Virus record (IMG/VR): IMGVR_UViG_3300048930_000242
Coordinates: 64,001-128,000 of that record
From: a virus
DNA length: 64,000 nucleotides
Reading direction: 5' to 3' (one strand)
Shown here: in pieces, positions 12,317 to 16,748 of the stretch
Layout: each line of letters starts with the position of its first letter
Position numbering within the stretch: the stretch's first letter is position 1
Translations under genes and position numbers: made by a program
Notes under the pieces: generated by a model
Told to the model about the DNA's origin: nothing
The model's input: only the letters and a program-made list of their open reading frames with translations
The model's database searches: none

Positions 12317-12798
12317 ATATCAGACAGATTCAAGCGGTTGTCAATAACAACTTCCTTCGTGGAAATCGGTTCAAGGTAATGACCGGTCTAGGCAACTTCG
12401 TGGACGAGAGATGCTGCTCGGTCTCTTGGCCGAACATCACCTATTCGACATTCAACTGGAAGAACGCCGGACCGAACATCAAGGTGCCATATGAGCCGGT
12501 CTTCGATGAGGTCCGACTAGAGTTCTATTGCGACCATAACGGCGTCGTGCCTTCGGCGATCCGCAAATGGAACAGAGATATTCTGGATGGATCTCTTCAG
12601 TTCAATTACTTCTCGGAGTATGTCCGTGACGTCTCTATCATGGAATACAACACATCAAACCAGATGGTCCATAAGAAGATTCTCTGTAACGCCTATCCAA
12701 TCACAATCGAGCCAGTTCAACTTGGTTTTGAACTGAATAACCAAGTAGAGAAAATCGCAATGCTTCTGTCTTATGAGTACTCAAAGGATGAGGGATGA
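12313..12798 (+). CDS. gp54: Baseplate tail-tube initiator, gp54-like
   Basis: R.NRF.V, KVPY, Y..EY, AYP..I....L; synteny. Confidence 0.75.
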   Translation: MNIRQIQAVVNNNFLRGNRFKVMTGLGNFVDERCCSVSWPNITYSTFNWKNAGPNIKVPYEPVFDEVRLEFYCDHNGVVPSAIRKWNRDILDGSLQFNYFSEYVRDVSIMEYNTSNQMVHKKILCNAYPITIEPVQLGFELNNQVEKIAMLLSYEYSKDEG

Positions 12799-13283
12799 CA
12801 AACCTGGTTCAAACTCCGGAATTCGTGAAAGTTCTTGATGGATGGCTAGAGAAGAACGATCAGAAGTTCGCCTCGAGGATCAAATCATGGAGCGGGCAAA
12901 TTCCGCCGCAGTTCAAGACTTGCACCACTCCGCTCTACCGTGGGATGACAGTCGATGAGTCTTTCATGGCAGCGGCCGATAAAGGAGTGACATTCAAGAC
13001 ATTCACTTCTTGGTCAATTAAGCCGGAAGTGGCGAAGAAATTTGTGAATGACCCGGCCTATAGATTGTCAAATGGCGGCGGAACGAAAATCAAAATTCTG
13101 ATAACGAAGAAGCTAAATGCATCCGATATTGTGTTCAACATTTTCAATTATGTTCTTTTCATGGGGTGGATGCTCCCATCATTAGGAATGGACGAACTAT
13201 CATTGGATTCTGCAACAAAAGAACAAGAAGTACTAGTGAATAAGGGCGTTGTTATCAAAATGCCCGATATCAAAATTATCTGA
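12795..13283 (+). CDS. Putative ADP-ribosyltransferase (R-S-E type fold)
   Basis: LYRG ... FTSWS....VA..F ... EQEVL motifs in canonical order. Confidence 0.6.
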   Translation: MTNLVQTPEFVKVLDGWLEKNDQKFASRIKSWSGQIPPQFKTCTTPLYRGMTVDESFMAAADKGVTFKTFTSWSIKPEVAKKFVNDPAYRLSNGGGTKIKILITKKLNASDIVFNIFNYVLFMGWMLPSLGMDELSLDSATKEQEVLVNKGVVIKMPDIKII

Positions 13284-13304: not shown

Positions 13305-14045
13305 ATGGGTCTTCCAAATATCCAAGCGGCGTATCTCACCAAGCAAATCGTGCTTCCGATCTCTAACAAGAAGATCAAGATCCGTCCGTTCTTGGCCAAA
13401 GAAGAGAAACTGATGCTGATGGTGAAAGAATCTCAGAATCCGGACGAGATCGCCGACATTATCTGCCAGGTGATGGACGCCATCTGTCTCGGAGAGATCA
13501 AGACCAAGGAACTTCCCGCGCCGGACACCGAGGCGCTTTTCTTGGCGGCAAGATGCCTCTCAAAAGGAGAGACGTCCGAAGTGACCTATATCTGTCGGGC
13601 GAAGGTCCCAGACCTGAATAAGCCCGGAGAGATGAGAACATGCTCCACTCCGGTGCCTATGGAGATCCGACTCGACGACGTGAAGGTGGTGATTCCAGAA
13701 GGACATACCAAGACGGTGAAGATCACCGGCACTCCTTTCGCTATTAACTTCAGGTATCCTACTCTGGCGGATTCAGCCGGAGTAGAGAAGAATCAAGATC
13801 CTTTCGAGAACGTAGTGAAACTGATCGAGTCGGTTTCTAATCTGGAGACCGGTGTGGTCTATGATGACTTCACCAAAGAAGAACTGAATGAATTCTTGGA
13901 CAGCCTTCCATTTGGATTCATGGCCGAAGCAGCAAATCAGTTTCTCTCCACGATGCCGACTCTATCCAAGAAGATCAAGTTCAAATGCCCATCCTGCGGA
14001 CACGAAGAAGACATCACGGTTAGAGGGTTGACCAATTTTTTCTGA
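13305..14045 (+). CDS. gp26: Baseplate hub assembly protein, gp26-like
   Basis: MGLP, LP.S.KKI.IRPFL.KEEK, D.E.LFL..R..SKGE, CPSCG, C-terminal GL..FF. Confidence 0.9.
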   Translation: MGLPNIQAAYLTKQIVLPISNKKIKIRPFLAKEEKLMLMVKESQNPDEIADIICQVMDAICLGEIKTKELPAPDTEALFLAARCLSKGETSEVTYICRAKVPDLNKPGEMRTCSTPVPMEIRLDDVKVVIPEGHTKTVKITGTPFAINFRYPTLADSAGVEKNQDPFENVVKLIESVSNLETGVVYDDFTKEELNEFLDSLPFGFMAEAANQFLSTMPTLSKKIKFKCPSCGHEEDITVRGLTNFF

Positions 14046-14254
14046 TCAGCGCCTTTAACGACTCGATAAGGGCGCATTATACCTTGAACTTCTTTTTGGT
14101 CAAGGAATATGGTATCACACCAGAAGAGTCCGAGAATATGCTTCCGTTCGAAAGAGAAATCTATATGGGACAGGCGATGAAGGACTTGGAAGCAAGAAGA
14201 AGAGCAGCAATCAATGCCGCCCGTGGCGGACAGTGGACTGAGTTAGGAGCGTAA
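14042..14254 (+). CDS. gp51: gp51-like hub assembly segment, probably expressed by -1 frameshift from gp26
   Basis: -1 frame reads HYTLNFFLVKEY..TPEE.ENMLPFEREIY (short gp51 family); no ATG/GTG before the conserved part. Confidence 0.8.
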   Translation: MISAFNDSIRAHYTLNFFLVKEYGITPEESENMLPFEREIYMGQAMKDLEARRRAAINAARGGQWTELGA

Positions 14255-14258
14255 CTAA

Positions 14259-16748
14259 GTGGCCGAACAACAGCAAAACGACAAGTTCCGTAAAGAGGTC
14301 TTGGCTTATCTCAAGAAGCAAGATTACGGTTCTCAGCGCCTTGGCCCGTTCAAGTCGAATCAACAAGGCAATGAAGAACTTGCCAAAATCCTTATGGACC
14401 TTCAGGACAAGTCTTTTGAAGAGGACACTGAATCACTTGGAGTCCTGGGCAAGGAACTGTCCGAGAAACTCAAGGAGCTGAATGAATCCGCTCTGATGGG
14501 CGATGCCGCCTCTCAGGCCATTTTGCTGGATCAATTGACTGCCTACGAGAATATGATTCCTCTTCTTGAGGAAGGGAATGCCGCTCAGAAGCACGCTAAA
14601 GAGATGCTTGGAATGATGTATAAGGATTCCAAGGCGGCGATGAAACAGAACTCGAAGTTCTATAATCGACTTGTCGAGGGCGCGAAGTCCTTGATGCCGG
14701 CTGCATCCGGCTTCTTGACCGCAATGACCGCCAAGTCTCCAATTGCGGGTGCGATGGTGAACTTCGCCTTGGAGAAGTTCCAGGCCCGTCAGAGACAGAA
14801 AGAAGACGCCAAGGAGCAGGCGGTCAAGTCCTTGATGAAGACTTTTGGAGCGATGGGAACGGCGTCCAGTCCGACCTCTCCAATGCGTGTGCCAAGCGCT
14901 CCATCTACAAGTTACCAGGACCACACCAACGACCCTGAGTTCCAAGCCGGCATCGAGGAAGGCATCATTGAGGAACTTCAGAAGCTGAACACTCAGCAGA
15001 TGGAGGAGCTAAAGACCAAGCTGACCGAACTGTTCGATGTGAACGAAGAGGAACTCGACTCCATTGAGCGGATCGCTCAGTTCTTGGCTCCGATCGCCTC
15101 CGAAGAGGCCACAATGGAAGCCGAGCGCCAAATGGACGAGCAGACCAGAATCCTCCAGTCGATTGCGAAGAACACCGGAGAGGCCGCCGATCCTAAGAAG
15201 AAAGATGGCGCCGGTGGAATGTTGGCCAATCTGCTCGGCTTGGCCGACATGAAGGCCGCGTTTGACATGCTGAAGGGCGCCGGCCTGATGATGTTTGGGT
15301 ATGCCAAGAATCTGGCCAAGCTTTTCTCGAAGTGGGCTATCCCAATCACTCTGGCCGTGGGCATTGGCAAAGGCCTTTACGGTGGCATCAAGAAATGGAT
15401 GGACGGAGGCACATTTGCCGAGGCACTGGCGACCGGTCTTACCGATGCCGGAGATCTCCTCCTGGACATCTTCACATTTGGCTACGCCAACGAAGTGAAG
15501 AAATGGTTCTCCGAGAAAGGCACCGACATTCTCGATCCAATCTTCGAGGCCTATGATTCGATCACTCTCTTCATCTCGGATTCGATGACCACGATTGTCG
15601 AGACATTCCAGAAGCTGAAGAAGTCGATCGGAGGAATGATCACCGACGCCTCGGACATTATTGATGCCATCTCCGAAGGAGGTTTGGACGCCGGTTTCGC
15701 GAAGGCTCAGGAAGTTTACAATCGCCGAAACAATATTCCGCAAGTGAATGTTGCCGGAAACGCCGGAGTGGATTCTCTTGGGAGAGATTCGGCATTTGGG
15801 AAAGCCCACCAAGAGAGGATGGATCGGACCGGCAATCCAAAGTTGATGTCCGCTCGGAAGCGTCGTGAAATGAAGGCTCTTGAAGAGCAGAACCAGGCGG
15901 CCGCGCCTGCCTCGACTTCTCCAGCCAGAGTTCCATCTATAAAGGCGACGACTGCCGAAAAACAGCAAGCCATGTTTGACATCATGGAAGCATCCGAGAA
16001 AGTTGGGGTGAATCCAGAATACATGATGAAAATAACTAAGCAGGAATCTGGATTTGATCCGAAAGCGCAAAATCCAAAATCTTCGGCCGGAGGCCTATTC
16101 CAATTTTTGGATGCTACTTGGCTTGAAATGATGGACAAGAATGCGGCAAAGCATGGAATTGACACGAGTCAAATGTCCAGAGATCAAATTCTGGCCATGA
16201 AGAAAGATTCAAAAATCAACTCGTTAATGGGAGCCGAATTCGCCAAGCAGAATGAAAAGACCATTGGGTCTAGTGATATCGGAGATCTCTACCTTGCTCA
16301 TTTTGCCGGAGCTGGGGCAGCTAAGAAATTGATTTCTGGCGCCGATCCAAGAGAGGCGTTTGGGAAAAATTACAATGCAGTGATGCAGGCGAATCCGTAT
16401 ATCCAAGGACTTGATTCGACTGGAATCAGAAATTGGGCTGCCAATAAAATGGACGGCCCATCTTTGACCGCTCCCGTTATTGGGGCACCTGCGGCCGAAC
16501 TAGCAACCAACGTGACTCCAAAGGCGGAGGCCAATGTAAATGCTCTGGAAAGCGCGTCCACGAAGGTCAAGGCCGACGAGACGATTTCCAGAGCGAAGGT
16601 CGAGTCGAAGAACTCTCAGGTCAACATCCAGAACAACAAGATCGCTGGTGCGTCAAGCGGCGGTGGTCCTCCATCCGGAGGAACCGGTGCGAACTCTCCT
16701 CGTCACTTGGACCCAACAATCGAGAAGTTCTCTCCGTTGTTGACTTAA
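14259..16748 (+). CDS. Tape measure-like protein (gp29 position) with SLT lytic transglycosylase domain
   Basis: Long helical protein; QESGFDP.AQN..SSA.GLFQFL..TW and YLAHF.G motifs. Confidence 0.8.
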   Translation: MAEQQQNDKFRKEVLAYLKKQDYGSQRLGPFKSNQQGNEELAKILMDLQDKSFEEDTESLGVLGKELSEKLKELNESALMGDAASQAILLDQLTAYENMIPLLEEGNAAQKHAKEMLGMMYKDSKAAMKQNSKFYNRLVEGAKSLMPAASGFLTAMTAKSPIAGAMVNFALEKFQARQRQKEDAKEQAVKSLMKTFGAMGTASSPTSPMRVPSAPSTSYQDHTNDPEFQAGIEEGIIEELQKLNTQQMEELKTKLTELFDVNEEELDSIERIAQFLAPIASEEATMEAERQMDEQTRILQSIAKNTGEAADPKKKDGAGGMLANLLGLADMKAAFDMLKGAGLMMFGYAKNLAKLFSKWAIPITLAVGIGKGLYGGIKKWMDGGTFAEALATGLTDAGDLLLDIFTFGYANEVKKWFSEKGTDILDPIFEAYDSITLFISDSMTTIVETFQKLKKSIGGMITDASDIIDAISEGGLDAGFAKAQEVYNRRNNIPQVNVAGNAGVDSLGRDSAFGKAHQERMDRTGNPKLMSARKRREMKALEEQNQAAAPASTSPARVPSIKATTAEKQQAMFDIMEASEKVGVNPEYMMKITKQESGFDPKAQNPKSSAGGLFQFLDATWLEMMDKNAAKHGIDTSQMSRDQILAMKKDSKINSLMGAEFAKQNEKTIGSSDIGDLYLAHFAGAGAAKKLISGADPREAFGKNYNAVMQANPYIQGLDSTGIRNWAANKMDGPSLTAPVIGAPAAELATNVTPKAEANVNALESASTKVKADETISRAKVESKNSQVNIQNNKIAGASSGGGPPSGGTGANSPRHLDPTIEKFSPLLT

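Follow-up and report, generated by a model that had tools for sequence, protein, structure and literature searches.

The stretch of DNA analysed here, which we call the window, comprises 64,000 nucleotides (nt) and corresponds to bases 64001–128000 of IMG/VR virus record IMGVR_UViG_3300048930_000242, a phage genome of 153,340 bp with direct terminal repeats that IMG/VR rates as 100% complete. In its tail module lies a gp26-like gene (13305..14045, + strand) encoding a protein of 246 amino acids (aa), which appears to be the short form of a chaperone for tail assembly (TAC), here called TAC-N. The protein belongs to Pfam family PF12322, T4_baseplate, the gp26/gp51 family (E 1.8e-53; 181.9 bits against a curated cut-off of 24.5), and matches phrog_150 (E 7e-52). 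The gene ends ACC AAT TTT TTC TGA, and thus carries a slippery heptamer, T_TTT_TTC (14036..14042, +), in the gp26 frame and in the X_XXY_YYZ register, with the 0-frame stop TGA (14043..14045, +) adjoining its 3′ end. In the –1 frame there follows a segment of 70 codons plus a stop (14042..14254, +), which corresponds to the ‘short gp51’ of databases and matches phrog_634 (gp51; E 3e-11) and the C-terminal positions 229–280 of phrog_150. Two further features flank the heptamer: a Shine–Dalgarno (SD)-like AGAGGG (14022..14027, +; core GAGG at 14023–14026) 9 nt upstream, and a hairpin (14049..14075, +) 6 nt downstream, composed of 9 bp, a bulge, 2 bp and a 3-nt loop. We consider it highly probable that a long form of gp26 is made by programmed –1 ribosomal frameshifting at this heptamer.

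The –1 frame of the window is closed by a TAG at 14021–14023, is then open from 14024 to 14251, and ends at the stop 14252–14254. Ahead of the conserved block it contains no ATG and no GTG; the first TTG, at 14084, lacks an SD sequence and would truncate that block. A –1 slip would join ..GLTNFF to LISAFNDSIR.. and give a product of 246 + 70 = 316 aa (the long form, TAC-NC), with GLTNFFLISAFNDSIR as the predicted junction peptide. An in-frame slip site followed by an open –1 frame is the arrangement of G/GT-type chaperone genes, and the window contains no single open reading frame (ORF) equivalent to T4 gp51, the tail sitting in the –1 frame behind the stop. Counting both strands, the 64-kb window contains a single TTTTTTY, the one at the slip site, against 28.5 ± 6.8 occurrences in dinucleotide shuffles, and so the heptamer at the gp26 end appears to be more than a chance feature. 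Four neighbouring genes of this phage favour TTC over TTT, by 45:16. Separately, we observed that runs of at least six T (or A) are strongly avoided, the 153-kb genome having, over its two strands, just 16 matches to TTTTTT, some of which overlap. An earlier note on this DNA, made from the letters alone, had pointed out the in-frame heptamer, a hairpin six nt beyond it, and a 70-aa –1 frame that is closed at 14021 and has no ATG or GTG before its conserved segment, and all of these hold. It had also placed the end of the –1 tail 4 nt before the tape measure gene; the spacing is correct, but the identity of that downstream gene rests on position, size and synteny, as set out below.

The mechanism that we propose is as follows. 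The gp26 protein would be a tail assembly chaperone of a T4-like phage, and most ribosomes would halt at the TGA at 14043 and release the 246-aa short form. We infer that a minority slip back by one base on U_UUU_UUC, with both Phe tRNAs re-pairing on UUU UUU, and then read CUG AUC AGC and onward for 70 codons, to give the 316-aa long form, whose C-terminal tail would be the ‘short gp51’ of databases. Slippage would probably be boosted in three ways, by the GAGG upstream, by the adjacent 0-frame stop and by the stable hairpin downstream, as at E. coli dnaX. The long form would then correspond to T4 gp51 and lambda gpGT, and the short form to T4 gp26 and lambda gpG. Both forms would act on the tape-measure-like protein encoded downstream and on the tail tube.

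To place the site in a wider context, we drew on 95 IMG/VR loci with a gp26 homologue, which reduce to 93 distinct loci including the window, on the gp26 region of nine GenBank phages, and on T4. All of the distinct loci (93/93) have T_TTT_TTY in the gp26 frame, with a gp26 identity among loci of only 27–40%, and the gp26 stop follows it by 0–3 codons (8 codons in one locus). In every locus the –1 frame runs without a stop from the heptamer to the end of a conserved tail of 59–73 aa, and conservation of the peptide begins at the slip site. The codon before TTT always ends in T, although the amino acid that it encodes changes, and the second Phe of the heptamer is encoded by TTC or TTT in a ratio of 75:18. 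Synonymous-codon controls were taken from one alignment of 70 sequences, the same sequences that provided the test positions. In this alignment the first Phe of the heptamer (Phe245) is TTT in 70 cases and TTC in 0, whereas the other conserved Phe residues, Phe29, Phe79, Phe197 and Phe213, have TTT:TTC ratios of 41:28, 40:30, 48:18 and 31:37. Residue 244 is variable (S, D, N, G or A), and yet its third base is T in 70/70 sequences. The second heptamer Phe (Phe246) is TTC in 54 sequences and TTT in 16, the opposite of a background that favours TTT. Because the controls have the same phylogeny, relatedness alone cannot explain this pattern; the nominal probability of 10^-33.5 treats the loci as independent and is an upper indication only. 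Judged from these codon counts, the slip site is conserved beyond what the protein sequence requires, which points to a constraint at the nucleotide level.

The same comparison bears on whether heptamer, hairpin and open frame could simply be juxtaposed by chance and have no function. Each of them is short, and hairpins with z near –3 do arise by chance in long sequences, but the combination recurs in all 93 distinct loci and in several phage families, and the window heptamer is the sole TTTTTTY in 64 kb. The comparative data effectively refute the chance reading, and we would assign it a negligible probability.

The elements on either side of the heptamer also recur. A GGAGG or GAGG ending 9–10 nt 5′ of the heptamer was found in 59/93 loci. 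This SD-like element overlaps a Glu-Gly pair, in which the Glu is encoded by GAG or GAA in a ratio of 42:16, as compared with 9:61 to 23:46 for five other conserved Glu residues in the same 70 sequences. The window encodes Arg-Gly (AGA GGG) rather than Glu-Gly at this site, and GAGG is still spelled. On the codon evidence, the SD-like GAGG appears to be maintained against codon bias. The window hairpin has a minimum free energy (MFE) of –15.5 kcal/mol (z = –2.96 against 200 shuffles). Across the relatives, the 50 nt past the heptamer have a mean MFE of –9.1 kcal/mol, as against –6.0 kcal/mol in control segments of the same genes, and a mean z of –1.74 against shuffles, with 47% below –2. In a large cyanophage-type clade the structure is a hairpin of 12 + 2 bp that starts 5–6 nt after the heptamer. 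In an ungapped alignment of 89 sequences, 61% of cells are paired in this stem, against 31–46% when the 3′ arm is slid; its covariation score is 0.238, against at most 0.119 in controls, and 0/500 shuffles reach 0.238. One of its pairs appears as U-A, A-U, G-C, U-G and G-U. The window hairpin is unrelated in sequence to the cyanophage-type hairpin but has the same shape, its position being shifted by one nucleotide.

The window thus has the three-part layout of dnaX type, its GAGG lying 9 nt upstream of the heptamer and its hairpin 6 nt downstream, both of them enriched or covarying in relatives, and we infer a stimulatory role for each. In the –1 signal of E. coli dnaX, reportedly described by Larsen and co-workers in 1994, the heptamer A_AAA_AAG is preceded by an SD-like element and followed by a hairpin. 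The gp26 loci are similar in this layout and in their spacing (SD-like element 9–10 nt upstream, hairpin 5–7 nt downstream), but the heptamer and the gene are different, and the candidate stimulators of the gp26 loci are recognised by their conservation. A scan of 13800–14400 against Rfam gave chance-level matches only. The hairpin was also considered as a terminator and rejected, since no T-run follows it and a terminator scan called no + strand terminator at 14049–14075. Immediately beyond it, antisense within the –1 tail (14076–14103, minus strand), there is a sigma-70-like match (TTGACC, 16 nt, TATAAT; 11/12), which is probably a chance one, the region having fewer promoter-like sites than shuffles.

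A conserved run of T could act at a different level. If RNA polymerase stuttered on it, some mRNAs would contain one base fewer (or two more), and the gp51 tail would then be in frame with gp26 without any movement of the ribosome. The conserved element is indeed a homopolymer run, and at loci L005, L006, L028 and L045 it reaches 8–9 T, a length at which slippage of bacterial RNA polymerase is established. Furthermore, a few database proteins in which the two parts are fused in one frame (P0127, P0005 and P0001, described below) could reflect heterogeneity of run length. However, the window and about 80% of loci have a run of exactly six T, which is short for efficient polymerase slippage, and the selection of TTC for the second Phe (54:16 and 75:18) caps the run at six and yet keeps X_XXY_YYZ. 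The register of the run is fixed relative to the gp26 frame, and the distances to the SD-like element and to the hairpin (5–7 nt) are the canonical spacing of a ribosomal frameshift signal. In addition, the PRFect paper gives separate short and long genes, and not slippage, as the alternative mechanism. We therefore regard transcriptional slippage as unlikely and ribosomal frameshifting as the better account of the conserved run.

Phage T4 offers an informative comparison. Its genes 26 and 51 are separate and divergently transcribed, and their products are detectable paralogues. T4 gp26 (208 aa) consists of the PF12322 domain only, while T4 gp51 (249 aa) contains the PF12322 domain (residues 1–201; E 3.9e-52) and a tail that matches the short-gp51 family phrog_634. 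A profile of 89 of the –1 tails aligns to residues 207–245 of T4 gp51 (E 5.5e-5), with a common Y-S-L..M-I-P-x-E-R motif; BLASTP of the 70-aa window tail against T4 gp51 found nothing significant, and the relation is visible with profile methods only. As T4 gp51 holds the PF12322 domain and the gp51 tail in one ORF, it corresponds collinearly, but as a single ORF, to the fusion predicted here. The two systems thus share a family and an architecture, a gp26-like domain followed by a YSL..MIP.ER tail, but T4 has two divergent genes and no slippery codons, whereas the window phage has one gene with a –1 tail and one PF12322 copy. The end of T4 gp26, ..RGLKEFFELL (L020:3803–3850, minus strand of that locus), keeps the Phe-Phe pair, but in the codons GAG TTC TTT, which are non-slippery. 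T4 gp26 is in this sense a natural negative control, as it keeps the protein motif and lacks the nucleotide signal exactly where no shift is needed.

It could nevertheless be argued that there is no fusion at all: the –1 ORF would then be an independent small gene, expressed by reinitiation, by translational coupling or from a non-canonical start, and the Phe-Phe pair of gp26 would be conserved for protein reasons only. The existing annotation is in line with this, as the GenBank records that we examined keep a separate short gp51. Initiation without an SD sequence is frequent in cyanobacteria and their phages, and the end of T4 gp26 suggests that the Phe-Phe motif does have a role at the protein level. 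Many loci have an ATG right after the gp26 stop or a TGATG overlap, and such overlaps naturally give a –1 relation. We therefore gave the –1 frame relation no independent weight; taken alone it is weak evidence, because common gene overlaps of 1 and 4 nt, such as ATGA and TAATG/TGATG, yield the identical frame. The weight of the case lies instead in the heptamer, in the missing starts and in the homology to T4 gp51.

As to the starts, the –1 frame of the window offers none ahead of its conserved block other than a TTG that would cut conserved residues. In the 14 codons of the –1 frame that lead from the heptamer up to the Y-[YF]-x-x-N-F block, 30/89 distinct tails have no ATG and 22/89 have no ATG, GTG or TTG. 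Neither the invariant third-position T at a variable residue nor the exclusive use of TTT (70/70) can be explained by conservation at the protein level, and T4, which needs no shift, encodes the same motif with non-slippery codons. Furthermore, the T4 homologue of the tail is fused to a gp26-like domain, and the window genome has no second PF12322 gene to which it could belong. An independent, unfused gp51 is thus very improbable, and production of the tail as an extension of gp26 accounts for these observations better. Database proteins tell a similar story. When 1.84 billion representative proteins were searched exhaustively with a profile, 2252 clusters containing the –1 peptide emerged, nearly all of 46–99 aa, whose starts are scattered over profile positions 1–20 or lie upstream inside gp26; scattered starts are what gene callers yield in the absence of a real one. 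Longer proteins bearing the –1 peptide did not appear in a word-indexed search. The profile search did reveal a few proteins that fuse the gp26 C-terminus and the gp51 tail in one frame, P0127 (226 aa), P0005 (192 aa) and P0001 (99 aa), of which ..GSANFFLLILSHESL.. is an example sequence. Natural fusion, variation in run length or faulty assembly could account for them; when viral contigs were searched with P0127, only an ordinary frameshift-type locus with T_TTT_TTA came up.

The properties of gp26 itself are consistent with a chaperone function. A profile scan of the complete 153-kb genome found a single PF12322 gene, and a gp51-like protein would therefore be obtainable only via recoding. 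An AlphaFold model of gp26, built on the 70-sequence alignment (mean pLDDT 90), consists of an N-terminal domain of TAC fold (about residues 1–91) and a Cys-containing C-terminal part. When the model was compared with 48,161 representative PDB chains, the best match was the HK97 tail assembly chaperone 2ob9 (Z 7.4; root mean square deviation 3.5 Å; 84 residues aligned), followed by 3fgx (Z 7.1) and B. subtilis YqbN 3klu (Z 6.3), all three over residues 1–97. Below these came a PLE protein (Z 5.0) and then unrelated chains at Z of 4.5 or less. Foldseek again placed 2ob9 first (probability 0.96; E 0.2), and the gp26 profile had no match among PDB sequences. The model thus suggests that the N-terminal domain has the TAC fold, the match being moderate but coherent. 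This agrees with what has been published on T4, where both gp26 and gp51 serve as chaperones of hub assembly and the virion contains no gp51.

The pair gpG and gpGT of lambda is the obvious point of comparison. It arises from the conserved tail-gene frameshift reportedly described by Levin, Hendrix and Casjens in 1993 and by Xu, Hendrix and Duda in 2004. As with that pair, the two predicted gp26 forms have a common N-terminus, the gene lies directly upstream of a tape-measure-like gene, less of the long form than of the short one should be made, and the N-terminal domain has a TAC fold for which the HK97 chaperone is the best PDB match. However, the window heptamer is U_UUU_UUC rather than G_GGA_AAG, and there is no sequence similarity to gpG. 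The window gp26 is also larger (246 aa, with an extra Cys-rich domain), its extension is only 70 aa, and it has candidate stimulators on both flanks.

Beyond the IMG/VR loci, the heptamer and the frame relation are present in seven of the nine GenBank lineages examined with a co-directional gp26/short-gp51 layout. Carriers include Synechococcus phages S-RIM8 and B3, Sinorhizobium phage phiM7, and, in the Straboviridae, Aeromonas phage phiAS5 and Vibrio phage VmeM-32. Rhizobium phage RHph_I1_9 has the heptamer as T_TTT_TTG, and Stenotrophomonas phage Yut3 has it despite its host, Stenotrophomonas genomes being GC-rich. In Vibrio phage vB_VmeM-32 (KU160494, L102:2200–2428) the –1 tail, which follows GAT TTT TTT CTA TAA, is unannotated, and the record has a gap between gp26 and the next gene.

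Several observations weigh against a uniform frameshift mechanism, or against parts of the evidence for it. Escherichia phage CBA120 and Vibrio phage D493 lack the canonical heptamer and have xTT TTC: gp26 ends ATT TTC ATT TAA in CBA120 (JN593240, L002:3190–3420) and CTT TTC AAG TAA in D493 (L105:2125–2330), and the mechanism is thus not the same everywhere. Both phages nevertheless encode a gp51-like peptide (..DLLSYF..MPWH..) past gp26 in the –1 frame, conserved residues of which precede its first ATG, and the gene after the gp26 region is gp5, not the tape measure gene. Many cyanophage-type loci have an ATG 2 nt past the gp26 stop, and the Rhizobium and Stenotrophomonas phages have a TGATG overlap; in loci of these kinds a separately initiated short gp51 is possible, judging from the available start codons. 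The hairpins vary in sequence and register by clade, just 61% of cells pair under the cyanophage structure, and the hairpin sequence also codes for a conserved peptide. The TAC fold match is only of moderate strength, and no protein, ribosome-profiling or reporter evidence for this phage or its relatives was found in the accessible literature. We also noted that a 519-bp stretch downstream of gp26 in CBA120 carries no annotation.

A broader evolutionary reading can be offered more tentatively. The frameshift site may perhaps be a conserved three-part, dnaX-like signal, with GAGG held even where the residue changes, a selected C that caps the T-run at six, and a hairpin rebuilt by clade, that is ancestral to the T4-like assemblage. 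The two-gene state of T4 would then be derived, the slippery codons having been lost and the Phe-Phe pair kept, and phages of Ackermannviridae type would use a non-canonical xUU_UUC. We regard this wider scheme as possible but less likely than not.

Parts of this picture are already in the literature. Vladimirov, Gautam and Davidson (Virology, 2022; PMID 34826709) are cited by later papers for having identified the TAC genes of T4-like phages. According to the PRFect paper, which cites that work, frameshifting is replaced in some T4-like phages by two genes, a short one and a long fused one. The paper on Pseudomonas phage Adele (PMC12846349), citing the same study, describes poly-T as known –1 slippery signals in the TAC-N genes of T4-like phages. 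As represented in these citing papers, the central idea, that gp26 and gp26-gp51 are a G/GT pair and that short gp51 is a frameshift tail, was thus published in 2022. The earlier note had said that the arrangement is not the standard annotation for T4-like phages, which is right, GenBank keeping a separate short gp51; the idea itself, however, is not new. The two central proposals of the note fare well: the G/GT chaperone pair is supported by the conserved heptamer, the start-less loci, the T4 gp51 homology and the TAC fold, and the idea that short gp51 genes are mis-started frameshift tails agrees with the scattered starts of the database clusters and with the 22–30 of 89 loci that have no start. 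The heptamer and frame relation, whose conservation it had left to be looked for across T4-like genomes, were found in 93/93 IMG/VR loci and 7/9 GenBank lineages. As far as comparison of sequences can tell, the programmed –1 frameshift site of the window is real and has good support, and it provides a clean example of a tail that lacks a start. With the central idea already in the literature, the value of the present analysis lies in confirmation, in quantification and in this example; the synonymous-site counts, the SD-like element, the covarying hairpin, the non-slippery Phe-Phe control of T4 and the Ackermannviridae exception may go beyond the 2022 paper.

The TAC frameshift of the Vandenendeviridae and Andersonviridae, with its GTTTTT motif, as reported for phage Adele, is a close parallel. 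There too a poly-T slip site lies at the 3′ end of TAC-N, the downstream ‘hypothetical’ ORF is really the TAC-NC tail, and the –1 frame is uninterrupted across divergent genomes; the protein family and phage lineage are different, however, and the likeness is one of description.

Frameshifting at gp26 would have several consequences. The gp51 of cyanophages and marine vibriophages lacks the first ~200 residues (Sullivan et al., 2010), and a frameshift would explain why the gp51 of cyanophages and of many T4-like phages has only about 20% of the length of T4 gp51. The short gp51 coding sequence (CDS) in hundreds of GenBank records, replaced by an unannotated gap in some, would be the tail of a frameshift product, and the 2252 clusters would have arbitrary starts. 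A simple annotation rule follows, whereby a PF12322 gene that ends NNT TTT TTY and is followed by an open –1 frame would be given a joined CDS. Furthermore, gp51, the ‘catalyst’ of hub assembly, would be placed in the universal G/GT chaperone scheme, and the loci provide a large natural series for the study of U_UUU_UUC shifting with SD-like and hairpin stimulators.

Finally, the neighbourhood of gp26 agrees with its position in a tail module. The window phage is a distant T4-like phage: none of 50,697 phage records matched the locus in a search at the DNA level, so that the phage is recognisable at the protein level only, and the identity of its gp26 to homologues in marine uncultured viruses and cyanophages is at most 35–40%, the best found anywhere being no higher than 40%. 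Downstream, in the position of the tape measure gene (T4 gp29), is a gene of 829 codons (14259..16748, +) with a GTG start and an AGGAG (14245–14249) 9 nt upstream. Its product contains a Pfam SLT lytic transglycosylase domain (about residues 551–690; the Pfam match, E 3.5e-9, covers residues 576–690) and matches phrog_196, a baseplate hub family (E 3.6e-10). BLASTP of the 829-aa protein against T4 gp29 gave nothing significant, and the tape-measure assignment therefore rests on position, size and synteny with relatives. The –1 tail stops 4 nt before this gene, and gp26 is thus directly upstream of the presumed tape measure gene, as is usual for G/GT-type genes, in a synteny common to the relatives. 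Upstream of gp26 lies a tail-tube-like gene, and between the two is an ORF of 162 aa (12795–13283) that is a member of phrog_27460, to which no function is assigned. This ORF also has a match to PF01129 (NAD:arginine ADP-ribosyltransferase) that falls below threshold (18.4 bits, the cut-off being 22.3; E 0.0014).

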